Shown piece after piece: positions 26,591-64,000 of a stretch of 64,000 nucleotides of DNA. Every line of letters begins with the position of its first letter. The first letter of the stretch is position 1. The stretch comes from Marsupella aquatica (taxonomy: Eukaryota; Plantae; Marchantiophyta), in assembly GCA_973895155.1 (NCBI GenBank), contig OZ316892.1:10272283-10336282 (forward strand). The letters are read 5' to 3'. Under the pieces are notes generated by a model. That model did not search any database. It had not been told where the DNA came from and saw only the letters and a program-made list of their open reading frames with translations. The position numbers were made by a program, and so were the translations under genes.

Positions 26591-27049
26591 AGGAATTTGT
26601 CCCGGAAGTATAATGAGTACAACTAGTCGCGATTACCCCTTCTTTGAACGTGAATAGCGGAGAGGATAACAAAAGTGTTAGCAAAATATATTCTCTATTC
26701 ATATTCTTTGAAGGTTAATGAAATGATATGACCCTGAATGTAAATACTTAGAAATTATAAAAAAAAACTTGCGTGTACTGATATATATCATAGTCATGAG
26801 TTTTTTCCATCCACATGATGGCCATGGCATTACAGTCTAGAGGCTTCACTCTAGACCTAAGCTCTTAAAAGTAGACTTCAGTTGGCGTTTTTATAGTCAG
26901 ATTTACCTAAGAACATCCAGGTAGAGTGGTGTAAGAAGTGCAAGCTATATAGGTACAAGCTTACACTTCAATCAGTAATGGCTAGGGAGAGAGAAGACCA
27001 GGATCTCTTTCCTTTTTTAATAGTTTTTCCCTTTCTAAGACAGGTTGGT

Positions 27050-28931: not shown

Positions 28932-29095
28932 ATCGACAGATGTCCGTGTATATATAGAGCACAGTTTAAGCTGACAGGAGTTCCATCAATTGTTGGAGGA
29001 GAAAGGCCTGTGAACAGAGCGATGTCCTTGTACATAGAGCAGGGTTTAAGCGGGCAGGATTTCCATGAATATTTGGAGGAGAACGGCAGTGAATT
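28860..29095 (+). repeat. Three degenerate tandem copies of the gene's 3' end
   Basis: tatagagca.ggtttaagc.g.cagga.ttccat.aat..ttgg.ggagaa.ggc.gtgaa is repeated twice after the coding copy. Confidence 0.85.
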
Positions 29096-36900: not shown

Positions 36901-39900
36901 ATCTGGTTTACAGCAAGCCCATTGTACAACGTAAAGCTCCTGTAGACACACACGTTAGTTAGTTAGTTAATGTTTGGTTTGTGTCTGTTGGGGTTTAGTG
37001 AGGGGTATGACTACCATGCGAGGAAACAGGAAAAAAAATGCTCGTAACAGGATTTTATTTGCTGTAAGAAGGTTTTTTTTGGCAGAATGGGCCCTTTTTC
37101 TCTCATAACAAGGTTCAGATGTCAACCCGCTAGTAATAACTTGCCTCGCTAGCCAAAAATGGCCGAGCAGTTTGTTTGGATTTATCAGAGAAGGTCCTGT
37201 AAGCTAAGCACAATTCAGGCAAACATTACTAACGGTCTGGAGTTCTACTTTTCATTTCCAACTAGGGGATCGACATGGGCAATCATACACATTAGACCAC
37301 CCCACTACAAACATGATATTACACCTTATGACGGGAAAATAACCTCGTCATTCATAGTCTGATACAATCACACCTCATTCAATAATGTAATATGATTCAG
37401 GCATCCTATTTAGTATGCACAAGGAAAAACAACAAGAGTGTTTCTCTGAATAACCACCATTTGTTCAAATAATACACTATAAATGAACTCTTTTAAAAAT
37501 GAAGGCTAGCGACCTCGCTAGCAAAAAAACAACCAACATATGGTATTTTTGTATATGCTTGAAAAGAACATTCCTTTATTAATGGAAATATCTATGCTCA
37601 CAACTTAGAAACAAAATATTCTACTCCTTATGGTCATGATATCATGGTCAAAATATCTCACCCTCTGAGAAATCTAAATTAATTAAAACAAAATCCAACT
37701 TACTTCTCACTTAAAAACAAAACTCTTTCCAAAGAGGACCTGTCCATCTCAAACCTCAATTGCCCGTTGAGTAAGATTGGAAATTTCAGCTATGGTTAAA
37801 ATAGGCTGCTTAACAATATCATCACTATCCAAGTTCAAATTAAACGGTAAACATTCTTAAAAACCCAAAGAATATGTTTGCAAGACATATAAGGTTTTCC
37901 ATGCAAATGCCTCTTGAAGAAATCTGGACAGGAACAACAAGGAAAAGAGCACAACTGAATCCAATATTTACTCGACTTACTTGGATTGTTTTCATGAGTA
38001 GCAATCAAAAACTGTGATCCCCATCCGTTTCCTTGGATGACTTTCTCAGAAGCTACGACCCTCATTTGTTCGTCATTTGCAGCCTGAATCCTTTTCAAGA
38101 GTTCTCCTGTGAAGTTGAAACGTTGTCGAGTACCTTTTCCATTCCGTGTCTTCATTCGTCTATTTGGGTAGGTTACATCAACCTTCTCTGGAAAAGAGTT
38201 CACGTCAATGCGAAGTTCCACCCGGTAATTTGGAGGAGAAACAATGCCATCTGGTTGGCAGTCCATGTAGTAGAGACCCTCAATTTGAAAACCCATCTGA
38301 ATCAAGAAGTTGATTTCAGGAGGTGTCAACCCTGTCCCTCGATGAACTTTCAGAGATTCAGGAACTAAAGGAAGTTGGGAAATCGACTTGCGACCCCTTG
38401 TTTTGTGATAGATATTGTTTGGACAGAAGTACAGAAGTTGAGTGTGCAGCGAAGTGATTCTCAAACCGTGGATGGCAACCCCAACAACACCGCATGATCT
38501 TTTGTGATACCCGACTTCCTTGATGAAGTTCCTACACTCGTCTCTTCCAGAAATGGTTCGATCCATAGACCCATTGCAGACTGGACCATTTCCGTTTCCA
38601 CACCTCTGGAAGTGCCAAGTCCCAAATGGTATGTCTACTTCATGTACAGCTGGTATTCACCGAGGTGGAATATGAATCGGTTCCCCTGTACCAAGAGGAG
38701 ATACAGCTTCTTCATGCAACGGCCTTGGAATTTCTTGAGTGTCATCAATCGACATATCAGTGCCATTTTCTTCATTATCAGAAAGAAGGATCACAACGGA
38801 TGGGTCCGAAACAACTTCTGGACCTCTAGACGACATTGAGTGATGGAGTATTCCGGAAGTTTCCAAAACATCTTGCTTATCTTCCACCACTTTCACACTT
38901 CCAAAATCCGAATATAGATTTCTAGGATGTACCCCCCTGGTCACTGCCTCGGTTCGCATTACCCTATCATGTCGATGAGAGTCTTCAGCACCAATTCTTG
39001 CCGAAGCAGGACCTTTTCGCTTTCCAGACTTTGTGCAAAGATCCCCGTGAAGTGGTTGGGTACAATGGAAATCGTACTTTGGAGATGACTAAAGCAAAAG
39101 ATTTGATGCTTTCTCGAAAGCATCAAGAGATCCAAGAGTATCTGCATTCCGATATGCAAGTTCAAAAATGGTTGGTCCATGTCCCCTGTGACATCCCTAA
39201 ATGTACGCAGCAAACACAGCAATCTGTTCACCAGCTCAATTTTGATCCAATTCACAAGCTTCCAACAATCCGATCTTCCTCTTCATTTGACAGGCTCTCA
39301 TTGACGCATGTACAGATTCTGCTCCAGTACAATTTGGCATCAATGCTGACTCCTTTGTTGTTTGAGTCTGAAATCCAATACAAAAACAACATAAGATTGT
39401 GTATCATGATGAAAGGGCCACAAACATAAACTCCCACTTAACCAGAATGCTAGCGACCTCGCTAGCCAACTCAAGTGGTTTACTTCACTTACCAGTCTGA
39501 AGTAGTTTCCCCACTATCGCCAACGAACAACCCACTAGGCAATCCAGCCTTGCAAAGCCCTCAATTTACCATGATGACAATTCCCAGATTTCCACCACTC
39601 TTGAATCTCGTTTGCCACTCTGTATGCCTCAACATATGTTGGAGCATTCCAAAATTTCTCCCACATCTTGTAATGCTCTGAATGTTTCCCGTCACGAATT
39701 CCCTCCAATGTATGACGTCTCAGAGACTGAGACAAATGGAATGCATCACTATGTTCTCTTTCTGGGAACCGGACACCATCAAAGAAAACATTTCTCACAG
39801 CAATCCATCCAGCTTCAGCATTGTCAGCCATAAAACCTGTTATCTCTACCTCACTAATACCATTCTCAGCAGCAACCTCCAACATTAAACGCCATGCAGT

Positions 39901-40576
39901 TTCCAAAGAGTCAGCATCCTCAGCTTTCAATTCACAAGTGAATATTGTACAAAGAGCACGGTAAGTGTGATCATAAACATGAGCACTGAAAGTGAGCCAA
40001 CCTGTTGTTATCCTATGCATCACGTCAAAACTCACCCATGCCCCCTCTAAAGTTCCTCCTCTTTGCATGCGACGGAGAATGTCAACACCTGAACCTGGAC
40101 CCTTGGTACTCATCTTGAACACATGAGCCCGGATGGACTTCCCAGCCTGTCCAGGGAACATGAACCTCTGAAGGAATGGAAATCTCACACGCGTTTGCAT
40201 CTCACGAAGTGAATCCAACTCACCTTTCTTGGGATTTCCTATCTTAACACTTCGAAAAATTGCATGGAACTTTGTCGGCGATGACACAACTTTCATTGAA
40301 TTCCACAATTCAACCTCCTCTTCTTTTGAAAGATCTTGGCATGACTCGGGATGCAAAAGCGATATCAATGTACCTATAGAAATGTTCTTCACCCTGGAGG
40401 GTGTTGCTAGTGGATGAGCTATCTGAACGCCTTGAATAACTTCTTCCGCTTTCTTCTTGGCAACTCGACACTTCCCCGTTCGAACTGGATGATCATGAAA
40501 TCCCATATGCACAGCAAGTCGAGACATATGCTTTGATATATGTGAATCCAAGGCCGGTTTTGCGTACACATAAAAC

Positions 40577-40968
40577 ATCTTTCATGACTTGTTGGACCAA
40601 GGAGTGGTCGTCTTTATTGACGACATGAGAAGTTGCTCAGAGAAGTGTTCTCTTGCCTTCGTAAGGCTCGTCTCTTTGCTAAACCTAGCAAGTGCGAGTT
40701 TGCGATGAACGAGATTCAATGGCCATACCTTTACCCGAAGGGGATTACGCCTAGTCAGGACAAGCTTAAAGAGATCAAAGAATGGGAGCGTCCATCCAAT
40801 GTAAGGCACGTTAGAGCCTTCTTGGGGTTTACGGGGTTCTATCAGAGATACATGAAAGACTGCAAGGATCGCAAGGCCCCTAAATGCGCTAATGTTGAAA
40901 AAAAAGTGTTTGTGTGGACACAGGATTGCGAGTTAGCATTCTTAGAACTCAAGCGGCTAATGATAATG
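40577..40968 (+). repeat. Duplicated chromovirus RT fragment (copy of ~58093-58522)
   Basis: Near-identical to 58093-58522 except for a 31-bp deletion between ACAT microhomologies, a 5-bp deletion, a 1-bp deletion and a few substitutions. Confidence 0.95.
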
Positions 40969-42030
40969 TGTGACACGGGTAACGTGTCACTTGACCGAAC
41001 CCAGGTCGTAGATTAGGACTTCTACGGTCATTAGGACCGTAGCTGTAGTGTAGAATAGCACGTATAGCCGTCTGTTGCCATTATGATTAGATTAGGAGTA
41101 GGTTAAGCTGATCGAATCATTACGAGTTCAGGAAGGGGATTATTACGCACGACCGAGGTACGGTGGCGGCAGCGGAGTAAAAATCAGCTAGAAGAATCAC
41201 GCTTGGACCGAGGCGCCGACTTCAGCTCGCTATCAATAACCAAAATGGCCTGGCCTTCTCACGCTCGGGCTCATCCTGGCACCTTCATAAGAGAGGAGCC
41301 GATGGTGCTGCGGGCCATTTGCTCATGTCTACCTTTCTTTGAATTCGCGGACGTTGCCACCCACTCGCCCTGCTGATCGAATCGAGTCGACCTTTACAAG
41401 GAGATTATCGAGGGAGAAGGCTTAGTTATCTCAGCAGAGGGAAGGTGAGGCACGGGGAGTCCCGGCCTGAGCAGGGTCAGAGTGCACCAAGGAGTGAGAG
41501 CCAGAGTCGAGCTTGTTGGGCAAGTGCGAGGCAGGGCCTCGTAGAGACTGGGCATCGACTGCCGTTGGGCATGCTGACCCCCTTTGAAGTCGAGTCAACC
41601 ATGTAAACTGATGCTCCACTGAGTAAATGTAGTCTTTTCCCCCTAATGTTTCTGCAAGTAACTGGTGTTGTGTGTATGCTTTGTCTGGGTAAAGGCGCCA
41701 TTTTAAGGGACGTACAGGGTGCGGACTAATGGTAGGGATTGCCACTCATTGTATGTCACAAGGTCCTGTCGTGTCGATGGCTTGAAAGGCCCCAAGCCGG
41801 GAGTTAGTCCGAGTCACTAACTGAGGGAATATTCCAGCGGTGGAAAACAAATATACCTATGACTAGTACGAATTATTCAGGTGTTATACCGGTAAGTATA
41901 TCGACTTAGCCCGACTTAGGGCTAATTGAGGTCACTACACACCTCCTTGCCCGAACCCTCACCCTTACTGGTGGTCGAGGTCGCACCATGGCACTAAACT
42001 GGATTTAAGGCCCAGGTTAGCGCCGCGACA
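40969..42030 (+). mobile_element. 5' LTR (1062 bp, TG...CA) of a non-chromovirus Ty3/Gypsy element
   Basis: Near-identical to 58523-59584. Preceded by TAATG and followed by a PBS-like TGGCGCTAGATGGAGGGG at 42048. Confidence 0.95.
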
Positions 42031-42144
42031 TACGGCGACCGGTTTTTTGGCGCTAGATGGAGGGGGCACTCATTTTGCCTTACCAGTGGAGCCGTGTAGT
42101 GAGCTAGTAACTTTTGATTTTGTACTCGACGTGTAGGAAGGGGC

Positions 42145-45100
42145 ATGCCCCTTACCCGGTCACGTTCTGCGTATTTACAACAACCGGACGGAGCATCAAG
42201 GTTGGAAGAGAATACCGCATCCGGCGAAGCGAGGAGCTCGGCTTCCCAAGCAGGATCGCGTGTTGTGATGGGTACCCAAGCACCAATGGCGGGAGGAACT
42301 CCACCGGTTCCACCAGCCCCGCAAGTACCAGGTGCGTTGCGGCCCCCTACGGCTCAGAACATGTCTCAGCGATCCCGGTTTCACTATCAACCCTTTAAGG
42401 GACGACCCACGGACGACCCTGATGAATGGATAGCTGAGTTCGAGGCCACGGCCAAGGCGAATGGTGAGGAAGCCATTAAGCTAACCATTCTTCCAGGCGT
42501 GCTACAAGGAGAAGCGCGCCCGTGGTATAACTTACAACCCCCGGGTTTCACATGGGGCCAGTTCCAAACGGCGTTCTTGCAAGAATTTCGGCCCGTCGGG
42601 ATCGAATCTCGGGCCCTGTCAAAAATCGGACGAATGCAAATGGGTAAGCATGACTCACTTCGCAAATTTCTGCAACGGTTCCAGAAGGTTGCCGCCAAGA
42701 TTCGACCTAAGCCAGATGACTCTTTGCTGAGGAAATGGTTCGTCAACGCGCTACCCCAGAGGATGGCGTTCTCGGTACTAGAAAAGAAGACCACCACTCT
42801 GCAACAAGCAATTGATAGTGCCGAATCCTTCAGGGAATCGCACTACGCCTCTCAGCTTAATCGGAGGACCAAGCATAAGAAGAGCAGGAGGTATCATACC
42901 TTCAGCGACTTTGACTCTGAATACGACGAGAAAAAAAGGAAGAAGAAATGACGACATAAGAGGAAGGGCCAGACCAGCTCTTTGTCAGACTCTGATTCAG
43001 AGTCTAGTGATTCCCTGTCCAGTAGCCCGACGTCAACTGGCTCATCCTCCAACGAGACCGAGTCAGAATCTCGAAACCACCGAAGAAAGAAGGGATCACG
43101 GTCAGATATGGGTAAACATAAACCGCGAGCCAAAGTCGTCACCACGGACCCAAAGGCTGCTGAGGTAGAAAAGCTGAACGAAATCACAGACCGGCTGAAG
43201 GCACTGTCGGTGCACTTGGCGGAAAAACCTCCGGACAAGAAGAAACCACCGGAAATCCGAGCGCATGCTTGGTGCTCCAAGTGTTATCAGTCGGGACATG
43301 TGGTGCAAGAATGTCCAAGATGGAACACTCGCGTGCACCAGATGGAGTTGGAGCCCGGACAGTCCGAGCCAGAGGGATGCACGATGGAGTACTTCTTCGA
43401 GGATCCAGGTGAGGCGGTGTTCCAGATGAGTATGACGGGACCTCGCACCCTAAGCGGCCACAATCCAGGGTTCCATACCCCTTATCCATACCCGGTGAAT
43501 GGGCGTGGCCCCCAGATGGTCAGCAATCCAAGTATCCCACCTAAACCCGGAGTTTGGACCCCGGTTTGCTATAATTGCGAGAAACCTGGTCACTTTGCCC
43601 GAGAGTGCACGGAGCAACGAAAGCAAGGGGATGGGAGAGCGCTTCCATTGTGCCAAGTCTGTCGAACCGAAGCACACTCCACGTCAAATTGCCCCTTGGT
43701 GCTAGCCGCGAAGGCCGGTGCCGTCAGAGCTGCTCAACCTGCGGCCCCACCAATTACGGATGCAGTAGTACAAATGGTAACAATGGAATGGCAGGACGAC
43801 TCCACCGAGTGGATCGACCTTATAGAAGCAGTTGAGCAAACGGGAACACACGCGGACGAGTGCTACCGCGTTTCTACTCGGTCGTCCCGCAAGAAGGACA
43901 AGTACAAAGAACGAGTTCGGAAGGATGCCCAACATAAAGAGGCGGTCCTGGATAAGAATGTTCCAATGGAACCCGACGAGCTAAAAGACTACCAGCGGGA
44001 TAACCCGAAGCTATTTTACCCGCGAGTAGAGGAACTGGTCAAAAAGCAATTGGAAGCCTACGAGGCCCAAGAGCACGAAAAAGCCATTAAGAAGGATATT
44101 GCCGATGCAAAGGCAATAGAAGAAGCCGAGGAAGCGGAGACTGCCTTGCAAGCTGAAGTCAAGGGACCAGAAGCATTAAAATCTGCGACCCCACCATCTA
44201 ACCAATACGACATCAAAAAGGATGTTCAGAACTGTGCAGCTACAGCCACTGTCGGACAACTATTACAGGATAACCCGAAGTATCGGCAACAACTCAAAGA
44301 GATGCTGATAGGAAACCCTGGGCCCTCAGCGTTACTAATGCAGGGAGGACGTGCGAACAACGCAAGATAATTTTTAATGTAATGCAAACTAATTTTTATA
44401 ATATTTTTTAAAGTAGGCAACATCCATGTATATACATTCATCACAATATTAGTAATAAGGCTCTTATCAAATACATGTCACATTAATCTTATGCAAGGGT
44501 GCCTAAAATGCCAAGGACACGTGTCACTATATGGTTGGCACACATGTCATCACTTCATTGGCACACATGTCCATATAGTAAATCAGACATTTAATTATTT
44601 ATCCTCTTAAGGCAAGTTTGGTTTCATGGGCTTGCATGGTAGACTTGTTTACCCGCATGTGTTAAGTTGAGAGTTAAGTAAATGTTGGGTCAGGATTTTG
44701 GGGCCCAACTCGTTTGGGTTCTGGGATTGATGGGGACCCATGAATCAATCCCACATAGACAAACAAGATTACTTTTGAATTCCCTCGAATCAAATGGCCA
44801 GGTATGAGGCCAGGTGTGTTTGTGTGTGGGGTGGTGTACTCCCTTGATCATTGGGTTGGGGGGGTACCCGGTGCTCACAGTTGTTTGATTGCAGATATGG
44901 CAGGAAAATTACCCACCATGTCTAAGTAACAATTTCAGCCAAAGGAGATTTGATGGTATTACTCTCCACAAATTTCAGTAGTCATTTTTTGTATTATTAG
45001 TACTTTGTGTCTAGAATATATATGATTAATGTGTGGTTTGATGTGTCAGGTTGCATGAAAGAAGTTGCCAAAAACTCTACTTATCATTTGGTGTTAATGG

Positions 45101-48100
45101 TTGATGTCATACCATTCTTAGTCAAGATAGAATAATTTAGCAATTGGAGTTTACATAAGTAGTATATATGCAATTATTCCTCCAGGACCAAGGATATAGC
45201 ATAGCATAATAATGCCTTTGTACTAGTTCAGTTTATCTCTATGAGGTCTACAAGTTGCCTGAGTTATAGTCATATACTCTAGGAAGAACTATAAATCTTT
45301 AGTATTAATTTTGTTATGATCTACATAAAATATGTACCGTGAACATCAGCGTAACATAATATTCCCCTATGCAAAATAGAATCTTTTATGTTTCAGTATG
45401 ATATTTACAATTTTTAAAAATTCAAGGGTTTTTTTAATTCCTTGAAAAACTTTGTTATAATTTACAAAAGGATAAATTTTTATAGGAAAAAATAATGTTT
45501 TTACATTAACAAGGGATTTTTTTTTGTGAACAAAAATATTAAGAAGGGGTACACGGGGGGTGTCTGTTCTCAGGGGGGTTCACTTAATATAGTAAGAGTG
45601 AGGGCCCAGGGATAGGAAAGAGGAGGCGACGGCTACCTCGGGTAAGCACCTTAGCCGACTGTATGATGATTTACCAGGACTTAGGAGCGCCGGAAGTCTC
45701 TATCGAGATAGCGGGTTGTACTGTTCGGTTTGTACCGGTAGACGGCGGGTCCGGTGTAAACATCATGACGGAAGACACTTCCGTAAGGTTGGGATATACG
45801 TCTTATCAACCCACGGCGCACGCCATTCGGTTAGCAAACGGCGCCAGGATCATGCCACTGGGGACGTTAACCAAGATATCCACGTGGATTGGAGGCCTCG
45901 AGTTTTTCCTAAATTACCTAGTGATGCGACCAGTTCGACCCTCTTCTTATCCAGTACTGCTGGGCAGACCCTGGTTATACGGTGTCCGAGTCGTGACTGA
46001 CTGGGGAAGGAAGGAATTACGATTCGGTAACCCGACTACGACGGTATCATGGAAGGAAGAAGACTACCAGGGCGAAACACCCCAGGGACCCGACGAATAT
46101 GACTCGGAGGAGGACATCTCAGAAGAAGAGGTGAATATGGTGGAGTTAATCTCTCTCCTGGATGAAGAGGAAGTCTTCGGGGTAAGTGTTGTCCGAGAAA
46201 CCCATTTTCTGAACCAGCCTAGGCCAGCAGCCCAAATCGAAACACCCGGGAGGCCAGAAGGAGATGATGCGGCAATGGGCGGGGCATTCCCCGGAGAAGT
46301 GAGCCCTACGAAGGCAGTTGGGCGGCTTGCCTTGCCCGGTTTACCTGAAGAAAACGCTACTCAGACCGCCACTCCTCCCACAAAGAAAAAGGTTACCTGG
46401 AGCCCCGAGATTCTGTCCGTAATAGAGGAACCCAAGGAGCTCCCAAGGGAGCGGCCGACAGTCTGGGGACCCATGGCCTACGATGGCACCAGACTAGAGG
46501 AATTGGAGGCTCATCTTGATCGGACCACGAGAGACCATGTGGATGTAATCCGCAAGGAGCACTATGGCAATTACACCACAAGGAGGGAGAGAACATTCAA
46601 CGTCGGTTATGGCCTACGAGCGCCAGAGGAAAAGGCCATCCAAGAAATCCTATCGGAATATGAGGACGTCTTCGCATGAAGTCACCGAGACTTAACCGGG
46701 ATTTCACCAGCCTACGGCAAACACGTCATTGATCTAAACTTGGGTGCTCATGCCGTCCGAGAAAGACAATGAAGACTAAACCCAAGACATTCCATCTTGG
46801 TAAAGGAGGAGTTAGATCAACTGATCGTGGCAGACATAATCTACCCCGTCTTATCTAGTGAATGGGTATCCCCCATTGTGGTGGTTCCTAAGAAGGTAGG
46901 GCTACTAGGACACCGAGTGTCCAAACGGGGGATCGAGGTGGACCAAGAGAAGGTGGCCGCGTGGATGAATGTCCCTTACCCAGCGGACCAGAAGGCGGTG
47001 CGATCCTTCTTAGGTTGCGTAGGGTACTACCGACGATTCATTCAGGATTTCGCTAAGATAGCCCTACCCCTCACAGAATTGATGAAGCAAGACGCGGTCA
47101 TAGAAATGACTCCCCGTCGAAAATCAGCCTTTGACGAACTAAAAAAACAGCTAACGATGGCTCCGATTCTGACTACCCCCGATTGGAACAAGGAGTTCCA
47201 TGTATATGTCGATGTGTCTGGGTTCTGCATCGGCTCAGTCCTAAGCCAATTGGACGACAAAAAATATGACCACCCCATTTACTTTGCGAGCCGACAACTG
47301 TTTGCCGTAGAGAAAAACTATTCGCCCATAGATCGGGAGGCCTTGGGGATCATCTACTCGTGCAAAAAGTTTCGCCATTATCTATTGGGGTATAAGGTGG
47401 TATTCCATACTGATCATGACAGCCTGAAGTACATGGTAAACAAAGCAGACTTAACGGGGAGAATAGCCCGTTGGGTCCTGCTACTCCAAGAATTTAACTA
47501 TGAAGTCAGGGTGCGACCAGGGAAAGCTCACGTAAATGCGGACTTCTTCTCGAGGATTGAAGGGGAATCGGACGACGCACCTGTCGATGATGCATTCCCG
47601 GATGAGGAGTTATTCCGCGTAGAAACGGACCAACTAACATGGTACGGGGACCTAATCACCTTCCTCTTAACGGCCCGCATTCCAAGTAACACAAACCAAG
47701 AGGCCACGTCGGTCTTTCTGCGCAAGGCCACACCATACATGATGATCCGCGGACATCTGCATAAGGAAGGCATCGATGGGAAGATCCGTCGATGCCTAGA
47801 TTATAACGAGACGATCATTGTCATGCGAGCTATGCACGAGGAAGAGGCAGGAGGACACTTCGCCCCGGTCACCACGGCTCACAAAATCTTGGACGTAGGT
47901 TATTGGTGGCCTACGCTCCATCACGACGTAGCCCATTTTATCCGAGGTTGCGACTTGTGTCAGCGTGCAGGCAAACCTCGCAGGTCGGGTAATCATCCTC
48001 TTACCCCGATCTTTCCCCTTGCCCCGTTTGAGAAATGGGGCATTGATTATATAGGACCTTTCACTCCGGTAACCCGAGGTCGGCGTTGCCGGTATATTCT

Positions 48101-48140
48101 TCTGGCTATCGACTACTCGACTAAATGGATCGAGGCCCGG
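42145..48140 (+). pseudogene. Ty3/Gypsy (Athila/Tat-like non-chromovirus) gag-pol, disrupted and 3'-truncated in integrase
   Basis: Retrotrans-gag (FKG...DPDEWI..FE, L.GEA..WY), CCHC knuckles (CSKCYQSGHVVQEC, CYNCEKPGHFAREC), protease VDGGSGVN, RT remnant (EWVSPIVVVPKK then LLGH), RNase H (FHVYVDVS, PIYFASRQL, TDHDSL) and integrase HHCC plus PFEKWGIDYIGP...KWIEAR, which ends abruptly at ~48140. In-frame stops at 42949 and 46677. Confidence 0.92.
44316..45611. mobile_element. Non-autonomous TIR element (1296 bp) inserted in gag-pol
   Basis: TIR CCCTGGGCCCTCA...TGAGGGCCCAGGG, extending imperfectly to ~22 bp. 8-bp TSD ATAGGAAA at 44308-44315 and 45612-45619. Removing it restores the frame MLIGK|RRRRLPRV. 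AT-rich non-coding interior. Confidence 0.93.
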
Positions 48141-49758
48141 AAACAAGCTCAACAATATCTCCAGACTTGACCTCCCAAACTCTTCCTCCATCAAGACTTC
48201 TTGGAATGAATTCATCCTTTCGATCACCATGAACAGAAACAAGAAAAAATAGCTTTGAGATGTAGTCACCATTCGTGATACCAAATCTCGTCAAGAGGAA
48301 TGACTCAGTCACCGGGGTGATCTTCCTCATGGAAGACACCTCCAAGTTAACAACATCACCATTGCTCCTTTGCCAGAATATGACCACCAAAGCCATCGAA
48401 TTGAGATGAAGAAACATTACCAAAGGTAGTGGTATAGAAGATATGTAAGAAAGTCCAAAAACTACATCTAACGGGATTAAATGTGAACGTTGAGGGAACG
48501 TTGAATAAACGACAAAATGTCCAACGGATACATCAAATCAAGGAGATGTAATATAGCTAGCGATGTCGCTAGCAAAATCCTCTCAATTTTGATTAACCAG
48601 TAGACATGTCATATTCTATATAGAGTGATCATTTAGAGACTATTTAGAGACCATTTAGGGACATGTAGGGTATGATTTCAGGGAATATTCTGTCAAGCCC
48701 TTCAATTTTGGGGAAAAGACAAAGGAAATATAGAAGATTAGTTTTAAAGACTACCTTTTGTCAAACTTCACAAACCAAAACCTTCAACTCAGAAAGAATG
48801 TATTGCCAGCGATCTTGCCTGCAAAAATCCAAACGGTCCTAGAGGATCCATTGAGTCAATGACTAATACACAAAGTTGTCAAATAAACCCTAGTTATCAG
48901 GTCAGCGATGTCGCTAGCAAAATCCCCAATATTCACCTTATCTCTTTGATGTAGTAAAGGTCAATATCCCTAATATTTTGGTGTCTTATTCAATACCCTA
49001 GTTAAGCTACCGATCTCGCTACCCATAATGGATGACCAGGAAACAACGAGTTAACAGATATTTTCCATCTCACATCTTTAATGTTTATACTTTCTTTAGA
49101 CAAATGTTGGTTTGGGGAAAGGCATTTAGAGTCCCTCAAAATTAAACAAGAATAAGAAACTCTTAAAATACCCTAAAACATTCTTGTGTGTTAATATATT
49201 ACCGTTGAAAATCTGATGTCCATTTGGAAAGCGATCTCGCTGGCTTAAATCTCAAACTTTAATGACCAGGAAATATATGGGTATGGTTTACTCATAAGTC
49301 TTTCCCAACGGTAAAATGGAAGGTTGGTCAATGTTAAAATTGATAGTTTCCGTTAACAACCTCTAAAGGGAACGTCGCATGGGGGTTAATGCTGAATATT
49401 ACGGTTATTCTAGTTGCTCAGGGTATTCATGACGTTCCAACTTCAACCGATGATGTTTAAAAGAGACTTGCATTTTTTTATTGCCATCTATGAGGGACGT
49501 TGGATTATTCCCTGTCAATGTCAGATATCCAGTTCACTGTATGTGGATTACTTAGGATTCTCCCTCTAATCCAACTTTGGATTCCGAGCTTGGTCCTTTG
49601 CTAATCTCGGTCGTCCTCCTCCGTTTTACTTTGGATACTCTCTCAAATGAGACTTTGGATACTCCCTCTAATCTGACTTTGGATACCAATTAGAAGTCAC
49701 CATACCCGCTGCAACGCTTCATTCGTGTGTTACTCCCTTCCATTTTCTTTATCAGCCG

Positions 49759-52700
49759 ATGGCAAATTTTGCATCACCAGAGTCTATCTCTTCTCAAGCT
49801 TCACAGTCTACAGCTTCTCAGTGTCGAGAGACAAGGTCTTCGACTACCAACAAGGCACTAGCTTCGGGTTTGAAGACACCTCGTCGAAGGAAACTTGTTG
49901 ATCCGATGGAGATTCTGCCACCACCGATGGAGTCTTCTAAGTCGGAACAGTTCTCCGTGGTGATCAATCGTCACCTCTACCACTTTGGGCCAAACAAATT
50001 TGGGTATCCCCTTGTTCCCCCTCGAATTCCACTGTGTAGGATGCAAAACATGCAGCTCGTCAGGTCGCTGCAGACTGATTCCAATGCAATCGAAACCCTC
50101 AAGAATGAGTTTTGAGCTCAGGGTTACATTGAGGACGCGCCCAGGTTTTACGTTCAGATGACGAACGAGAATGGTGAGGTTCAGTTCATCAATGACACCA
50201 TTCGAATGGGTTGGGATCCGATACGGGCGTTGCAGAACAAAGAGAGAGAGTGTGATTCTCATCCGAACTTTGCTGTATTGAAGGACAAAATGTTTTACGT
50301 TTTTGACGGTAATCATCGTCTATACTCGTGGAATCTGCTGGCCATCGAGAATCCACATGATATCAAATATCATCCTCGTGTTGTCACCAAGATTTTCAAA
50401 GGGGAGAAAGACACGTTTGTGCAGATTGAATCTGCAATGCATGCCCTGAATCGGTGAGCATCGGATCTGTTCTTATTGATTCAATGCTGTCTGTCACTTC
50501 ACATTTCGGGTTTTCTTATCTAGGATTTGTACTCGAAACATCTTTGATACTTTTGTTCATTGGCAGGCTCACTCAATGCCACGTTGAGAATTCATGGGTC
50601 CTTGAAGCAGATCGTGTCCAGAAGATACTGAACACGGACTTGTCGGTCTACAAGGATTTGATTGATGCAGACAATTTCAAGTTGTTCCAACAAAAGATGC
50701 AAAATGTGAAGAAACCCTCCTGGTATTCAAAAAAATGACCCTGGATGCTTGTATTTACATTCTTTCAGCTGCAAATATAGCTTCCCAAACTACGGATTTG
50801 CAGAAGAAGTTTTCTCTCAAGGAGGATCTTGGAGAACCTTTGTCAAAAGTTGCAAAGGACATTGCTCTACGAGAAATGATGAAGGAGCAACTATCTGATT
50901 GGAATGTTAAAGTTCCAAAAATTGCTCCTCTTCTCAATCCCGAATTCGGGGATTTCTTTGAGAAATGTGTGGAGATGCACAACTACTGTGAGAAAGAACG
51001 GAAGGAAGCACAAAGGACTGATGATAAAGGGAGAGGAAATGTCTCATGTGGTCTTGATCGAACAAGGCTTTTCACCGGGGTAACATCTCTCAGCCCACTG
51101 CTTTGTTGCAATCTACTTGAAGCGCAGTGCAAGCCCGAGCTACGGAAGCAATATTTTCATCCTGGGCAATTCTCAGATAGTGAGACTAAACTCTGGCTGC
51201 ACAGGTGGGCTACGTGGGAACAAGTAGAGTCGATTGCTAGATCTCTTTTGTCCGAAGCTATTTCAGAAATGATTCTAAGTTTCCCTGAATCTCGAGTTCT
51301 TTCAGCCTCAGAGAAGAACAAGGCATCACTTGTTCTTGATGTTAGTGATGATTTTGAGGACTTTTTGCAGCAAGTTAAATCCAGGTTTTTCAAGAGCATT
51401 TGGGCCCCAAAAGTAGGGGAAAAGATAGATATTGTCGCATTTCGGAGAAGGGCAAAAAGATATGTATACCGATTTTTTGTTGACCGGGAGGTGGCCAATA
51501 GAGCATTCTGGTGGTGTTACCCCGCGTGTTTCTCCCAGTGGGCTGAATATGTGACTGACGATTTAGGAAATAAAAAATGTGGTGACTACTCAATGTACCC
51601 TTGTGAAGACGTTGAGCCACTCCGGAAGATGAGTGAATGGGAGCAGAAGATGAGTGAATGGGAGGTTTTACACTGTCCATGGTACTTAGATTCAGAGAAT
51701 TGGTCACTGACATTTGATGGGACAGAGAAGCTTGCTTTGCAAAAGATAAATCGTGGGTTAGTCCCAGAGTTTTCTATTTCTGAATCAAAAATGCCCAGCC
51801 TCGAAGCAGTGCAGGCCGGGTGTGAGGCGATGGAGCAAGCTTGCCTTGGTGTTGCACCAATTGTTGATAGAAGCCGTTCCAGAAAATTGAAGAAGGACGT
51901 TGTGAAGGAGGTGTCGAAAGAGACCTCTCAGGTTTCCGGCAGGAGAAGTAATTGTGCTCATCGTCCTAACTCTCAATCGGCTTCTAATGTTTAGTCCTTT
52001 CTTTGCAAATTCTCGTTTTCTCAGGTTTTTGGTTCTCTTTTGTTTTCCAGAAAAGAGAAGATCGACTGGTTCAGAGAGTGTCCAGACTGTGCAGAATCGT
52101 GGGCGACAGGATCCCATTGAACCTGAATCTCCGGATTTTGAGATTGTGACGAAACCGATTGGTGATAAGCTTAAGAAGAAGAGAAAGGTTCAAGTGCTCT
52201 CAGATTCAGAAGATGAGGAAGGGTAGATCAGTGAGGGTGTGATGAGGATATGTGGACTTCAACTGGATGGGAATCAACATTTCTTTGCCAGGAGTAATTT
52301 GCGTTTCACTGCAGACTCAATTGCTTTGAAGAAAGTTCGACCTTCGTGGATGGGGGAGGGGGATCGTTGGCTGAGTGAGATTTTGAGTTCTTCAGAACAT
52401 CCGAATCCCCTAAGAATCAATGGCAAGCCTTACACCGGCACCAGTGCCCATCTTGGGTTCATTGCTCTTCCTACAGGACTAAGGCCTCGTGTTACTGATG
52501 TGAAGGTGCTAGAATGGAATGTTTGGATGGAGAAACTTCCTTATTACTTCTTCGGAGTCATGAGGCCGATGTTGTCCGATGATGGATATGTGGCTGTTCT
52601 CCATAGTGGAGAATTTAACCACATGAAGCAGATTTTTGCTGCCATTGAGCAGAAGAATAAATTCAAACATCTTCGCCAGTACCACGTTTTGTTGAGTAGC

Positions 52701-53354
52701 CCAATGTGGATGCCAGACATCGATGTTGAGGTGAGATGTCAAGATTTTTTGGTTTAAATTATAGGTGTTTTTTGCCAGCGAGGTCGCTGGCCTTCACAGC
52801 CTCAGTATTTGACATATTTTTTGCTTTTCCAGGTTTGCAATCTCAGTCTGGATTTGTTTTGTCAAACTGAATTCGATGGGAAGATCCCCAAGGACCCGAA
52901 GTACATCCCCATGGCAACATCTGAGGATGCATCTCATAAGAAGTTACTCACTCTTTGTTACCCAAAAATAAATGTCAGGACTGAGTTAGCTTTTGCAGGG
53001 TCTTGTCGATTATCTGTTGGATTCATGCAGGCGGTGATGGAGCTTTTGACAAAGCCAAGAGACATTGTGCTAGATTGGAATGTTGGAGATGGAAGTTCAT
53101 TCCGAGCGGGGGAACTCTTGGGGAGGTTTGTAGTTGGGGTTGAGGATAGGGAATTTCTCCATGATGCTGCGCAGGAGTCGTTGAAGTTGGTTCTGGATCG
53201 TCATAAGAAAATTGAAGACATCACTGTCGGGATGGGTACTGATCATTGGAGGACGGGGATTCAGATGACGAGTTTACTCTTGCCGGATCGAGTGGTGGAA
53301 GAACGAAAGTTTCTGCTCCGGATGGGAAAGATGACCACGATGAATTTGACCTAG
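49759..53354 (+). pseudogene. MULE second gene: ParB/Srx-like domain + long middle region + beta-class N4/N6 DNA methyltransferase-like domain
   Basis: Exon 1 from ATG 49759 reads through a probable CGA>TGA at 50113: IPLCRM...VR.L....I..LK..F...GY...FYV...FYVFDGNHRLYSW (DGNHR at 50305-50319). Introns at 50454-50566, ~51930-52050 and 52731-52832. A-run frameshift at ~50735 and in-frame TAG at 52224. MTase-like AHLGFIALPTG (motif IV position), RPMLSDDGYVAV, then ELLTKPRDIVLDWNVGDGSSFRAGELLGRFVVGVE (motif I region). Confidence 0.75.
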
Positions 53355-53433
53355 AGTAATGTACTTATCCTGTCTCATACCAAATCCAACTGTGTTTAGA
53401 AAGTTAAGTTCAGTTTTTTCCACCTTGAATTAA

Positions 53434-53811
53434 TTGGCTGCTGATTTTGCTTCTTACAATGATCGGCGTGTAGATTGGTTCTTGGAGGAGAGATTTTGGC
53501 TCCGAAAGGAAATTGAGGGCGCTTTTCTCTTCTCGCCTGAGAAATCGTTCACTCTACCTTGCTATGCGGAGAAGTCTACAATTGAAGCTGATGAGACTTT
53601 TGTTATGACTTGGGAAGGAAAAGGTCGGAGGTCAGATCGTGGCGCTCGGAGGAATTTGTACAGCCTTCCTTTCATTGATGTTGAGGCGGGTCATGTGAAG
53701 AGATATGTGGACGAGTCCGCTGAGTCAACTGATAGGGAGTTTAGCAGTGAGGAAATCAATAGTAGTAGAAGGAGTGATTTGGAATCAGATGAAAGTCATT
53801 CCACAAATTAG
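53434..53811 (+). CDS. Small ORF or extra exon inside the MULE, acidic C-terminus, unknown function
   Basis: 125-codon open frame with non-ATG start between the MTase-like gene and the right TIR. Contains LPFIDVEAG and an acidic Ser-rich tail. Confidence 0.35.
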   Translation: MAADFASYNDRRVDWFLEERFWLRKEIEGAFLFSPEKSFTLPCYAEKSTIEADETFVMTWEGKGRRSDRGARRNLYSLPFIDVEAGHVKRYVDESAESTDREFSSEEINSSRRSDLESDESHSTN

Positions 53812-56054
53812 TGTGAAGTTTTATTCTGCTTGTGTGTCCCCTGAATGGGAAGCAACAGAATAAGCTTGATCTCTTTAGCCATTCTGGAGAACTTACTCTC
53901 AGTTTCAATAAAGTAATCGAGGCAGCCAATTTTGATGAGTGGGAAATGTCTGTAACTTGAGTATAATCTTTATTGGTTTTCTTGTTTTGTTCAGTTTTGT
54001 GTATGATGGAAGGCTAGCGCCCTCGCTTACAACCCATGTGCATTATGAAAGGTTTGACAAATGCTTACTTAGTTTGGTTGTGTGAATTCCTTTCTAGGCA
54101 CTAAATATGCCATTCAAAAAATGACATATCCCTCGCTAGCAAAAGCTCTTGTCGCTAGCAATTTCTCCTGTTTCCTTGCATGGTACAAACCCCCTTTAGT
54201 GAGTCCATCTGAGCACATTGTCAAACCTTTATGTCCATCTGGGCTTTTCTTACTCATTCTTCCCTTTTTTCCCAACATATTTTCCAATTTTTTCCTTCTA
54301 TGAGTGTTATAAGGTCTCCACTGGACTACAAAAAGAAAAGTGCATGTTCTCTATAAGAGTGCTATTAATACACTTATTGGTAGGAGTTGCTATTTGGTCC
54401 GGGTCCATCAGCGATTGGATGAGCGAGGGTATGTGGTGAGGGTGTGCCCCATGTTTAGAGTTTGCAGAATCTCTTGTGCAAAGTATCTAGAAGTGTGAAG
54501 TCTTGTGCTTGCACTTACAGCATAGTTTACATCTATGTAGGTGCAAGAGCATTTGGGTTTGCACATCTTGCTTAGTGCAGACTATGGATAAGTGCAAGTC
54601 TGGGCCTTCTTCCTGAGGCCTTGCACATCTTCTCAGTTTTATCTAATGACACTTGTCATTGCAAGTGTCAAGTTGTGCACCAATTACAGGTGTCTGGCAT
54701 CAGGGACAAATCCTATCATTATTGTTGTCTTAACATTTCCCAAGCTAGTGAGGGCTCTATGAGAATAATATAGTCAAAGTTCTATAAGTGTAAGGCCTCA
54801 GGACGAAGGCCCCTGCATTGTAGCAAGTCATAAGACCAATTTGAGAAATGGTGCATTTATTGATTGACTATAATAGACTGTACATTTAGAGGATACATAT
54901 ATATAATGAACTAGTAGAGTGAAGGAAAACAAAGTAAAGGTACAGTCAGCTCCTCCCTTGATACCACTGAAGGAATCCCCTCAACACACCATTCATAAGT
55001 TCAGTTTGGGAACTTCATCCCTCAACTCCTGCCTCTTATCTATAAGTGCAACATTTAGTAGATGGCCAGACGCTATGGTTGCACTTATGTGTAACTGCAC
55101 TCTATTGCGTTTTTGTTATGGTTTTTCTCATAAGGATAGGACTGCATCAACACTTGTAAAGGTCTTGTGCCTCGGTCTACAGTGGGTTCCATGTCAAACA
55201 CAACAGTTTGGGTAATAAACACCCTAGACTGTTTTTTTGAGAGTTTAAAGCATTTTAAGTTCAATGCTTTATGCTGAAAAATGGATTAAAAAGCACCTTG
55301 TTATTAATTTCACAAAAATTATAAGTATTCCACTAAACCCAAAAACATCCCTATACTTACTCACTGGTGTGGATATTAAGAGGAAAATAGTGAGGACCCA
55401 GGGAAGACGTATTGTATCTATAAAATAATTTGTTGTTGTAGTGAGCCTCTTTGTCACTTAGACTAACTGCAAAAAAGTCCATTTTCCCACTCAAAAAGAG
55501 AAAGAACCTCCTCCCTTGCAATAAGTCAGGGTTTTATTAAGTGCATGGGGGAGCAGTTATTCATGCTCACTTAGGCAGGATCGACTATACTCCTAATAGT
55601 CATTGTGCCTATTCTCTACTTGCACACTCAACTTAATGATGATTGAGTGCATAATTTCTCAAATTGCATTTATGACTGGCTGCAATTAACATGGAAGTGC
55701 ACATAGGGGCCTTTGTCCCAAGGTCTTGCACTTAGGGATGATGGACTATATTGCTCCTCTAGAGTCCTCACTATACTAGCTTGGGAATCTACATCTATAA
55801 TAAGGGATCCCGCCAAATCCCTCTCATCGTCCGTTTACAAAAAGAGACAAAGGAGGGAACATTGCTTTACCGTCAGACATGTGCAGGAATATTCACGACT
55901 CTTGGATTGGGGGACAAGGTGCCCATAATTTGAATAGACTTAGGATAAAGTATACTTAGTTATGCTAATTATTAGGGACTACTATGTCCTTAGCGCGCGT
56001 GCTAAGCATGAATTAGACCGGATCACTCATTAACCGCCATGCTGGCGGCGTCAC

Positions 56055-59000
56055 AAACTTACGATGGGGCCTATGAGCAAAGTGGACAAAAGTTCCTGAG
56101 TTGGCTCTCCACAATGGAGATTCATCTTCAAGCGTGCGTTGAGCGATCCACTTGGGCTACCGCAACTGCTCCTTACCTGAAGGACTATGCCTTGACTTAG
56201 TACAAGTCTTGGAAGAAGTCACGAGAGGACTCTTCCTTGCCGTTAACTTGGGAAATCATGGTTGAGGGTCTCCGTGCTCATGTCACCACTAAGTACTCAG
56301 AGCGGCACGCTCATAAATGTGTAACGGAGATGAGTTTTACGGGTGATATCCAAAAGTTCATAACTTATTACCAGAACCAGTTGGCGTGTATCCCGGCGGG
56401 GCAAGAGACCCTACATACGCAGCTTCACAACTTTATAGTGAAGCTCCCACCGTTGCTCAGGGAAAAGTTATAGGAAAAGCGTCATGAGTTTAAAACGCTT
56501 TCTGACGCTTTCGACAAGGCCACTACGTTGGTGAATAACCGACCGGACTTGGCAAAGGTGGGTGGCAAGGGAACTGAGGGGGAAGTTGGGAAAGCAAAAG
56601 GTCCCAAGAACAAGGGTAAGCAACCGGAGGGGGCGGGGGCCGGTGATTTGGATCCTCGGCCCCTAAATGGAGAAGCAAAGCGCAACTGAAAGGCCGACAA
56701 CTTCAAGAAATGAACCTCATCGGCACAGAAAGCAAAGAAGTAGGCGCTCATGGAGCAGAGGTGTGCGGGAGGTTCATGCTACACATGTGGCGCCATGGGC
56801 CATCAAAGTAAGGATTGCCCCTCAAAGGGTGGCAAGCCGAGTGAAGATGGAGGGCAAAAGGGCATTAAGGTAAGTATCGCTCTAACCAAACCCTTAGTAG
56901 TTGACGAGGTCCCTGTGGGGATGTTCTTGCCGGAGAGAAGGTGTTGTTGCAAGGGAAAGTACCTAAGGTTAAGACAATGGATCCTGAAAAGCTGATATTT
57001 GTGAATGTCACTTCTAACAGTAATCTGGGTGTTGCGTTGGTAGATACAGGTGCGACCGCCTACTTCATAAGTGGGTAGGTAGCGGCACGTCTTGGGGTGG
57101 ACGTGCAAGAGTTGCTACAACCGTTAGTGTGCAAGTTTGCCAACGACACAAAAAGGATAGTGTCAAGAGTGGTGCATAGACTTGGGTAGAGGTCATACGC
57201 GAACAACAAAATTTTGTTAGTCAAGAGATGTTCTACGTTCTAGATGGTCTAGCGGTAGACTTCATTTTGTCGGTAGGTTATCTCAAGAAGCACAATGTTA
57301 CCTTGAAACCGGGGGATGAGGTGCTTCATGCATTTTCCCAATAAGGGCGATGAGCCCATCGTTGTACACAAAATTACCAAAAATAAATAAATATTTCTCA
57401 AAGTAAAGTGTCGTGGTTGTCTCCGTGTGTATCGGCAAAGCAATGGTGGAAAGGCTTCAAGGGTGGGCATGAATGTCTTTTCTTTCATCTCCACCCAGTT
57501 AAGGAGGCTGCCTCGTAGCCAAAGGTTAAGTCAGCTAAGGTCGGGCCCGACTGCGGTCAAATTAATGAAATTTTAGAGGAATTCAATGATGTGCTCTCGC
57601 AGAAGCTACCTAAAGGTTTACCCCCGCGGAGAGAAGTGGATCACCAAGTTGAGTTGGAGCCAGGTTAGGCTCCTCAGGCTAAAGCTCCTTATCGTCTGAA
57701 CCTGAATGAATGAATGATGTTGAAGAACACCTTGGAAGAATTGATCAACCAAGGTTCATTCGTCCTAGTACGAGTCCTTATGAGGCGCCCGTGCTGTTGG
57801 TGTCCAAAAAGGATGGTACTTTAAGATTGTGCGCAGATTATCGAGCCCTCAATAAGCAAACGGTAAAGAACAAATACCCGTTACCTCATATCCAGGATGA
57901 CCTCTTCGATTGCCTCTCCGTGGCTAAGAAGTTTTCAAAGGTGGACTTGTAGTCTGGGTATTACCAAATTTGCATGGCTAAGGGAGACGAGTATAAGACC
58001 ACGATGCGCACAAGGTTTGGATCCTACAAATTTTTGGTTATGTTGTTCGGGTTGTGTAATGCAACCGTAACATTCATGAAGATGATGAATACCATCTTTC
58101 ATGACTTGTTGGACCAAGGAGTGGTCGTCTTTATTGACGACATCCTAATCTACTCAAAAATGTTGGAGGAACATGAGAAGTTGCTCAGAGAAGTGTTCTC
58201 TTGCCTTCGTAAGGCTCGTCTCTTTGCTAAACCTAGCAAGTGCGAGTTTGCGATGAACGAGATTCAATTCCTTGGCCATACCTTTACCCGAAGGGGATTA
58301 CGCCTAGTCAGGACAAGCTTAAAGAGATCAAAGAATGGGAGCGCCCATCCAATGTAAGGCACGTTAGAGCCTTCTTGGGGTTTACGGGGTTCTATCAGAG
58401 ATACATGAAAGACTGCAAGGATCGCAAGGCCCCTAAATGCGCTAATGTTGAAAAACAAAGTGTTTGTGTGGACACAGGATTGCGAGTTAGCATTCTTAGA
58501 ACTCAAGCGGCTAATGATAATGTGTGACACGGGTAACGTGTCACTTGACCGAACCCAGGTCGTAGATTAGGACTTCTACGGTCATTAGGACCGTAGCTAT
58601 AGTGTAGAATAGCATGTATAGCCGTCTGTTGCCATTATGATTAGATTAGGAGTAGGTTAAGCTGATCGAATCATTACGAGTTCAGGAAGGGGATTATTAC
58701 GCACGACCGAGGTATGGTGGCGGCAGCGGAGTAAAAATCAGTTAGAAGAATCACGCTTGGACCGAGGCGCCGACTTCATCTCGCTATCAATGACCAAAAC
58801 GGCCTGGCCTTCTCACGCTTGGGCTCATCCTGGCACCTTCATAAGAGAGGAGCCGATGGTGCTGCGGGCCATTTGCTCATGTCTACCTTTCTTTGAATTC
58901 GCGGACGTTGCCACCCACTCGCCCTGCTGATCGAATCGAGTCGACCTTTACAAGGAGATTATCGAGGGAGAAGGCTTAGTTATCTCAGCAGAGGGAAGGT

Positions 59001-62627: not shown

Positions 62628-64000
62628 AAGGGGGGGTGCAAGTCACGGAACTCGATACCTCAACACTAAGCTCCGACGTCACTGACACCAATGCCGAGCT
62701 CCCTTATGGTCCAGGCCCATATAGGCCATCCAGAGAGGACTTAGCATAGGGAGACTTGTGGGCAATGAGACGTGGCACTGGCGAAGGCAAGGTGCCAAGC
62801 TGGTGACACACACTAAGGACTTAGGCTAGCTGAGAGCTGGTCGGGTCAAGGGGATAAGGGGCTAGGCTCAAGGTTGACCGTCCGGACCCCCGGACAAACT
62901 TTGAGTTTTGAGGGCTTGAGTGTGAGCTCCTCTTGGGCCCAAGGCCAATGGAGTTGATGCCATGGGCAACAGACGCTTGGGGCGCGAGTTACGGCCTGAT
63001 CCGGGTTTGGCCGATCGGGGACCCCAAGTAGCAATGAGACCTGAGGGCCTAAGCATGAGCACTAGGTTGGCCCGATCACAACGGGCTAACTAAGGCACTC
63101 CGCTTGCGGACGCCTAACGAGAAAGTTATGGGCGTTGCCAGTTGGTGGCGCGCCCAATATGCAAGATAGGGTCCGGGTTGGGGGCCAAAAGTTTAGGGAC
63201 CAAAGCTGGTCCAGGGGTGACAGGTCTCTAGAAGCATATATGAGGGGAGTGGTGTCTCCCTGGGGGCTAAGGGGCGAGCCGAAGTTGTGAGCCGCGTCGG
63301 TCGCAACACTAAGGGAAACCACCAAACGGATATGACGATATCTTCCCAACGGGAAGTCTGTTGGAGGACTTCTTGGGTGAGTTGGAAAGCTCTCAAAGAA
63401 GGCTACGTCTTCTTGAGCTCAGTTGGGTCTAGGGACACCATGGGTTCTTGGGGTTTGCGGGTGTTATCTCGCCCATTTGCCAAATCCTACCGAAATAGCA
63501 GCCATGTCGCGTTCAGTCTCCCAAGGGAGCTTGCATTGGGGAGACAAGGCCAAGTAGCGTGGAGGATGATTTCCAAGGGTGCTTGGCCCCTAGACCATCA
63601 GTGGGGAAAACCGGGAGTTGGTTGCTAGAGTCGGGGCCATTCTGGTCCCGACATGTTGGGACAAGCTTTAGGACAAGCTATGCTAATTGGGCCATGAGCA
63701 TGTCCTGGGGTCAGGGCGGTCAGTTGGTGATGGATGTACGAGGGGAAACCCGGGCTGCGCCCAAGGAAGGAGCTATTATGGACGTCAAACAGTGGGCGTG
63801 GGTTCTGGTTCCAGCTTATGGCGTTGGGAGGACCTATCACTGACCTATTTACCAATGTCCGTTGAGCTTGATTTAGGATGCTAGACTTGGGAGTTCTAGA
63901 TCCTGAAGGGTTACTTACCAAGGTGCTTGGTTGTTTGTGCAGACTATGAGGACCGTTGAGTAGCGGTCGTGTTGGAGAGCAAGTGCGGCTTCGTATGGGA
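62628..64000 (+). mobile_element. PPT and 3' LTR, probably of the chromovirus; runs off the window
   Basis: Polypurine tract aaggggggg at 62628-62636, followed by sequence homologous to the LTR fragment at 5495-6090. LTR start is ~62637-62641. Confidence 0.65.

Follow-up and report, generated by a model that had tools for sequence, protein, structure and literature searches.

A transposon in the liverwort Marsupella aquatica raises the question of what a protein joining a ParB-like domain to a DNA-methyltransferase (MTase)-like domain does for the element that encodes it. The window analysed here is a stretch of 64,000 nucleotides (assembly GCA_973895155.1, contig OZ316892.1, positions 10,272,283 to 10,336,282 of the forward strand), and all coordinates below are positions within it. 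The element at 37003-54194 is an inactivated DNA transposon, probably of the Mutator-like type, and it carries an accessory gene on the plus strand at 49759-53359, head-to-head with its transposase gene. A first-pass annotation had proposed that this gene is an integral part of a Mutator-like element (MULE) and that its protein may mark, read or protect the element's own DNA. The reading preferred here, to which a probability of roughly 0.5 is given, is that the protein is a non-catalytic helper that binds its own element and keeps it open and expressed, in the manner of the VANC proteins of VANDAL elements.

A multicopy accessory gene in a dead element

Four exons with 1,094 codons make up the accessory gene; the introns between them, all GT-AG, measure 113, 103 and 102 bp and agree in phase. 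Exon 1 (49759-50453) has a low-complexity start followed by the ParB-like domain, exon 2 (50567-51947) encodes an all-helical domain of about 400 residues, exon 3 (52051-52730) a basic/acidic linker and the first half of the MTase-like domain, and exon 4 (52833-53359) its second half, with the motif I region DIVLDWNVGDG and an acidic tail. All four exons align in order with the Riccia protein P0105 (1,207 aa) at 24-39% identity. The plus-strand spliced gene of about 1,000 codons described in the first-pass annotation is thus essentially correct, although the end given there, 53354, is a stop in a shifted frame. The same annotation had called the copy inactivated by stops and one frameshift; two of each are present, namely a TGA at 50113, a frameshift in an A-run near 50728, a TAG at 52224 and a second frameshift near 53243. 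Three of these four lesions are absent in other copies, which carry the additional base at both frameshifts (50728 and 53243) and encode Ser or Leu at 52224; the per-copy variant rows covered 40 of 951, with none over the stop at 50113. Within exon 2, a short tandem duplication at 51628-51660 (KMSEWE twice) is not shared by 22 aligned relatives, and other copies break off at 51646.

A third conserved open frame with the motifs LPxYA and PFIDxEA follows on the plus strand at 53434-53811. It has no in-frame start before its conserved part and is either the last exon or a small separate gene. In six Riccia models a sequence matching it (hhalign probability 92%) is joined to the end of the MTase-like domain, so the gene order is conserved. 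The frame had no Pfam match. Its PFIDxEA motif is followed by acidic residues, a pattern resembling the acidic motifs with which proteins such as Spt5 bind histones.

The ends of the element are those seen in the first-pass annotation. A target-site duplication (TSD) of 9 bp, TTTAGTGAG, is repeated exactly at 36994-37002 and 54195-54203, and inside it lie terminal inverted repeats (TIRs) at 37003-37062 (left, plus strand) and 54135-54194 (right, minus strand). The TIRs are short and imperfect, best across the first 28 bases, where 22/28 are complementary. Their local score is 55.5. Of 281 random pairs, 280 scored no higher than 46; the one other pair scored 154 and is presumably a real repeat pair. 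The 9-bp TSD and the TIRs, together with the motifs known for the superfamily, make it likely that the element is Mutator-like. The signature of the Mutator/MULE superfamily is TIRs, a TSD of 9 bp (range 8-11) and a DDE transposase with (C/D)xxH after the second D.

On the minus strand, the 3' part of a DDE-type transposase gene occupies 37750-40581 (its 3' end is approximate), with an intron near 39371-39480. Several in-frame stops have broken it. Two aspartate motifs (VSFDVMH and GFMADNAE) and a DxFH or CLFH motif are conserved across relatives, with the third acidic residue unplaced, and a SWIM-like CxC...CxH pattern lies at the C-terminus. Relatives number 30 at E<=0.001 with 37-72% identity, and include the liverworts Calypogeia fissa and Riccia sorocarpa; a metagenome scan with the transposase query confirmed no relative among 86 stretches. 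Of the DDE/SWIM transposase initially proposed for this strand, the open frames, the aspartate motifs and the CxC...CxH pattern stand, while no match to a Pfam MULE or SWIM domain was found in 17 + 19 proteins scanned. Relatives align only from 40581 downstream and a weak 5' stub is left at 48166-48400 (minus strand), which together indicate that the retrotransposon-derived block on the plus strand at 40582-48165 replaces transposase coding sequence, roughly 150-200 codons of it. The probable stub is weakly similar to the start of three Riccia transposases: hhalign scored it 21.2, where the highest of 25 shuffles reached 17.4, with a probability of 10%, and BLASTP gave E 0.12. The nested block, absent from the first-pass annotation, is not an original part of the element. 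It is derived from Ty3/gypsy and contains a reverse transcriptase (RT) fragment, gag, a zinc knuckle, protease, RNase H and an integrase zinc finger, all but the RT fragment recognised by Pfam. The element measures 17.2 kb, of which 7.6 kb is retrotransposon-derived, and before the insertion it was about 10 kb long.

The accessory gene belongs to a multicopy family under purifying selection, in agreement with the earlier view that it is no one-off capture. The copies were surveyed in Logan contigs from four runs, representing two organisms and two studies, in which 407, 313, 1,282 and 882 contigs matched the element, many of them 80-95% identical. These cover the transposase stub, the spacer, the accessory gene and the right end, and contig depth falls beyond the right end, dropping steeply past ~54300. 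When this copy was compared with the others over 52170-52560, 20 of 33 listed differences were synonymous against an expected 22-29% (p 2e-6 to 1e-4), and 12 of 14 in the MTase-like part from 52400; these counts are of sites rather than independent events and include this copy's own lesions. Such a comparison of copies had been suggested in the first-pass annotation. With the central domain as query, a search that used no profile retrieved 102 clusters, among which the 24 looked up included 12 from Riccia and 2 from Calypogeia, and a query with the Riccia C-terminal domain added 26 further Riccia models. The family comprises 42 gene models at 36 mostly fragmentary loci in Riccia, and is found in Calypogeia too. 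A word-based protein search with exon 3 against longer proteins yielded none among 276 candidates.

Domains of the accessory protein

The C-terminal domain is predicted to have a beta-class amino-MTase fold, with the motif IV region preceding motif I. Exon 4 alone gave E 5e-5 against Pfam N6_N4_Mtase, which falls short of the cut-off, and the structure queries used a model of a relative, Riccia P0106 (mean predicted local distance difference test score, pLDDT, 56.5), whose MTase-like domain matches the window exons at 24% identity (E 1e-9). In Foldseek this model matched CcrM (E 2.7e-7), with 37 matches at E<=0.001 and beta-class amino-MTases first. In VIA the model matched M.MboII with the highest Z, 9.3, and a root-mean-square deviation of 4.7 over 163 aligned residues, and the top seven rows were all beta-class MTases. 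Identity in the structural matches to MTases was 10-17%. A fold search of a model was the check proposed in the first-pass annotation for its beta-class assignment, and both methods agree with it. The features it had read from the letters are likewise all present: DGNHR, a stretch reading L.KP.DIVLD..VG.G, and a motif IV region before motif I. The half with motif I, whose usual SAM-binding form is FxGxG, gave a profile match with a probability of 95%, and the motif I region, DFAGGWG in Riccia and DWNVGDG in the window, is conserved in 23 relatives. Another Riccia model, P0104, was considered as an MTase-domain protein and rejected, as it is an N-terminal fragment.

Motif IV is degenerate. In beta-class enzymes the target base stacks on the motif IV tyrosine (PMC10406627). 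The usual form, (D/N/S)PP(Y/F/W), was not found in the family, where the register of the motif is inferred. At the end of the first strand, the place of DPPY in these enzymes, the family reads D-L/M-P/S-T/S. Among the 25 relatives whose motif IV segment was located by an anchor pattern, the fourth residue was aromatic in none; in the closest bacterial family, D-I/L-P-Y is present at 62 of 66 loci. The relatives have DLPS (nine), DLPT (five), DMPT (four), DLSS (two) and five other forms once each; the first-position aspartate is kept in 23/25. The window lineage has ALPTG here (52464-52478), with the aspartate changed to alanine, and four runs listed no variant at these codons at depths of 219-4,702. 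Against CcrM, the range reported by VIA shows an offset of one, which places the family's Asp30 on Asp31 of the CcrM DPPY if there is no gap. Because the aromatic residue has been lost while the domain stays constrained, it is likely, judging from sequence, that the MTase-like domain is a maintained pseudo-enzyme rather than a writer of N4-methylcytosine (4mC) or N6-methyladenine (6mA). The suggestion that the protein may mark DNA is not supported, with the aromatic residue missing from motif IV in 25 of 25 relatives and the aspartate gone as well in the window lineage.

For the N-terminal domain, a ParB-type assignment is moderately supported. Exon 1 carries the signatures IPLCR..R, E.LK.EF...GY.E, DGNHR (in 8 of 9 rows shown), PRV and MHALN. 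In a profile test with hhalign, 7-11 family rows were compared with 35 ParB_N domains and 14 N-domains of phage ParB-MTases, giving probabilities of 47-70%, pairwise E of 4e-5 to 2e-4, and scores of 26-28.6 against at most 17.6 in shuffles. With a 40-residue insertion omitted, the order of strand, helix, strand, GxxR helix, strand and asparagine-containing helix is colinear with phage ParB_N and Spo0J. In the ESM Atlas, residues 155-335 of P0105 lay nearest to cnidarian and fungal clusters (0.96) and then to a ParB_N cluster (0.92; rank 27, 127 shared features). Between 31 and 47% of the members of the fungal clusters carry DUF3723, which is a conserved cargo gene of Starships. The Atlas result and the DUF3723/Starship connection hint that a ParB-like module may be common to the accessory genes of unrelated giant transposons.

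The central ~400 residues are modelled confidently as all helices (pLDDT >90). Queried only inside a 906-residue model, this domain was matched by Foldseek neither in PDB nor in BFVD at E<=0.001 and had no usable ESM Atlas match, and the VIA rows for that model came mostly from the other domain. A metagenome scan with the central domain confirmed no relative among 79 stretches.

A candidate target site and the proposed role

An 18-bp palindrome, GCTAGCGA-NN-TCGCTAGC, recurs in the non-coding DNA of the element. The pattern AGCGANNTCGCT, with one mismatch allowed, had 8 matches in the window where 0.9 are expected, and all eight fall within 3.4 kb of non-coding element DNA. The pattern scan placed one downstream of the transposase gene (37505-37522), one in the transposase intron (39449-39466), four at 48559, 48904, 49009 and 49230 in the spacer that separates the two genes (48401-49758) and is common to diverged copies, one in intron 3 of the accessory gene (52774-52791), and a degenerate one near the right end (54013-54030). 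The TIRs or their immediate flanks also hold half-sites, at 37146, 54133 and 54152. A sigma-70 scan of the spacer gave chance-level results.

In the reading preferred here, the protein of ~1,100 residues, with a probable ParB-type domain, a helical domain and an MTase-fold domain without the usual catalytic motif, would load as a dimer at the GCTAGCGA-NN-TCGCTAGC sites, comparable to the loading of ParB at parS. A dimeric binder is proposed because a palindromic site is suited to one, because inverted repeats are what ParB binds (bioRxiv 10.1101/2025.02.11.637652) and because beta-class MTases act as dimers (PMC10406627). The MTase-like domain would serve as a module that grips DNA or reads bases, possibly still holding S-adenosylmethionine. 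Bound at the shared promoter, in introns and at the ends, the protein would shield CpG-containing sites from host methylation or recruit a host eraser, a step modelled on VANC in VANDAL elements. We infer the binding, the dimerisation and the effect on methylation alike.

Several observations weigh against this reading. No contig spans the whole element. The first-pass annotation had asked whether the gene always sits beside this transposase; it does in the window lineage, the only one in which the linkage is seen, while in Riccia a word-based, length-limited search found four transposase models, none of which adjoins an accessory model (the nearest is 24 genes away). The Riccia MTase-domain model has a mean pLDDT of only 56.5, and hhalign did not register the motif IV half on bacterial MTases, so that the register comes from strand context and VIA offsets. 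The ParB profile signal comes from the N-terminal half of the domain, with the C-terminal half alone below 1% probability. ParB was unmatched in Pfam, PHROG and NCBIfam, by PDB sequence profile and by phage tblastn, and the N-domain model is mostly below pLDDT 50. What holds of the ParB/Srx-type domain originally named is therefore its motif order, the hhalign probabilities and the Atlas similarity, without a Pfam match or a confident model. The palindrome pattern was picked after the data had been seen, and the transposase is an equally possible binder, because half-sites sit in the TIRs. Finally, the CpG content of non-coding element DNA equals that outside (0.56 in each), so this dead copy bears no footprint of protection.

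That half-sites occur in or near the TIRs, and that these are short and imperfect, would also suit a MURB-like transposition cofactor, in which the ParB-like clamp bridges or compacts the element and helps to pair its ends, the palindromes are transposase sites and silencing is unaffected. Transposases can bind and activate their own elements (bioRxiv 10.64898/2026.08.24.746577). The full palindromes, however, lie in introns and the shared promoter, distant from the ends, and the occurrence of similar ParB modules with unrelated transposases (Sola, Plavaka and Zisupton) fits a DNA-level role better than one tied to a particular partner. A cofactor of this kind is possible, if somewhat doubtful.

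An active amino-MTase with an unusual motif IV, writing 4mC or 6mA on the element, is unlikely. It would account for the beta-class fold and motif order, the aspartate retained in 23 of 25 relatives, the motif I region conserved in 23, and the purifying selection, and the comparable protein of Ectocarpus is predicted to be catalytic (PMC12477816). It has to contend with the absence from all 25 relatives of the residue on which the base stacks (PMC10406627), with a window lineage in which the aspartate is replaced by alanine and the region is still constrained, and with the Riccia genome, where methylated adenines number only 4,071 genome-wide, a count not split by element (PMC11735767). The lack of transposase adjacency in Riccia, where few models were compared, would suit a single host gene captured by a Pack-MULE, or a family of host genes lying in the element by chance, but this is very improbable given a complete four-exon gene with a conserved downstream frame, many diverged copies with the same spacer and ends, selection among the copies, 36 mostly fragmentary Riccia loci and the same palindrome in introns of both genes; the hallmarks of Pack-MULEs (captured host fragments, few copies and no purifying selection) were not those of this gene.

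Surrounding sequence and related systems

Other features of the window lie outside these two genes. Retrotransposon-derived copies of 1.5 kb that are 96% identical (an RT fragment and non-coding sequence) occur inside the element at 40576-42044 and outside it at 58093-59598, and both seem to start at the same truncated point. Within the nested block, an AT-rich 1.2 kb between the gag and protease frames (44370-45590) is possibly a further insertion. Just right of the element, nested inverted repeats at 54602-55787 are possibly of the miniature inverted-repeat transposable element type. Inverted similarity over several hundred bases links 5562-6050 and 62666-63262, 57 kb apart, and may represent two copies of a further repeat or the termini of a far larger element. 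Two short inverted matches, at 3549-3746 and 27013-27154, are separated by 23 kb and are possibly TIRs of another element. Tandem repeats (141, 133 and ~81 bases) and a C-rich low-complexity tract are found at 26109-26967, 24496-24804, 28869-29112 and 19297-19551. An open frame at 11831-12625 with a PADRE domain (Pfam E 1e-15) is probably a host gene; PADRE is a land-plant family.

The class to which the accessory gene belongs, ParB plus amino-MTase, is already published for algal transposons, where the members so far are predicted writers. In Ectocarpus, Sola1-1_Ec32 encodes a ParB-like and N4C/N6A MTase accessory protein of 1,104 aa, and similar proteins are cited for transposons of green and red algae (PMC12477816). 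As in the window, a single protein of about 1,100 aa (1,104 and 1,094) holds both domains, its gene and that of the transposase lie on opposite strands of a large element with TIRs, and it is also proposed to bind its own element. By description, that element differs in being a Sola-1 transposon of a brown alga with a 4-bp TSD, whereas the present one is Mutator-like with a 9-bp TSD in a plant, and catalysis is predicted there whereas motif IV is degenerate here. Red-algal Plavaka elements and Mutator elements of Chondrus carry ParB-2-oxoglutarate (2OG) oxygenase genes and N6A methylase-SET genes (bioRxiv 10.1101/2025.02.11.637652). These accessory genes, PAG2/PAG3, resemble the present one in joining a ParB-like domain to a fold that modifies DNA, in having inverted repeats close by, and in a module spread across transposon superfamilies that include Mutator. 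They differ in that ParB is joined to a 2OG oxygenase, with the adenine methylase in a separate SET-domain gene, and in that their repeats are tandem arrays rather than single dispersed palindromes.

The closest functional parallel in plants is VANC of the VANDAL MULEs, where the sites of VANC21 are located in introns, between genes and in terminal regions (PMC5735166). Both systems have a Mutator-like host, an accessory gene and a short motif confined to non-coding DNA, and in both the accessory protein diverges faster than the transposase (here 27-33% versus 39-61% identity to relatives). Unlike VANC, neither the window open frames nor the full-length relatives had a DUF1985 or DUF287 match in Pfam, the motif is palindromic rather than in the same orientation, and the window element keeps its TIRs.

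Phage and prophage fusions of ParB_N and N6_N4_Mtase, such as L078, have the same domain order and beta-class motif order; they are shorter (~420 aa) and have DPPY, whereas the liverwort gene has the 400-residue helical domain in between, the 40-residue ParB insertion, introns and no DPPY. When prokaryote genomes were scanned with the MTase-like domain from Riccia, no relative was confirmed among 209 stretches, and no close prokaryotic one was found. Marchantia DN4MT1 is likewise a beta-class amino-MTase in a liverwort, but it is described as a tandem pair of host genes that carry TSPPY and have demonstrated activity, with no mention of ParB (bioRxiv 10.1101/2021.02.12.428880). ParB-linked and inactive transposon-borne MTases were listed by Iyer et al. 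2016, where the part seen does not include this family (PMC4738411). Among them, the inactive N6A-MTase domains of DIRS1 retrotransposons, like METTL14, resemble the present domain in having an MTase fold with a disrupted active site; these differ in lacking a ParB-like domain, DIRS1 belonging to another MTase group and METTL14 to an RNA complex.

What is new here is the land-plant Mutator-like host, the loss of the catalytic motif under continued selection, and a candidate target site. A full-text literature search found no report of the accessory gene in land-plant Mutator elements, an absence that is weakly established, since the Ectocarpus paper escaped the same search; bryophyte members may already be in print. 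A broader proposal can be put forward only tentatively: Mutator elements of the liverwort type may carry an ancient anti-silencing machine of prokaryotic components that has hopped between transposons, in which a ParB clamp would load on parS-like palindromes and spread, and a disarmed amino-MTase fold would grip or flip bases at CpG, allowing escape from host methylation. If true, this would be a second, independent counterpart to the VANC of flowering plants; in the accounts available, only VANC and, recently, TnpA and a transposase have been shown to counter the silencing of their own elements in plants. The family extends to land plants, its MTase-like domain has been conserved although the catalytic motif is lost, and the DNA itself offers a candidate binding site. 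Near-complete Riccia relatives (P0105, 1,207 aa) and a transformable liverwort model make it testable whether the protein is a writer, a reader or a shield.

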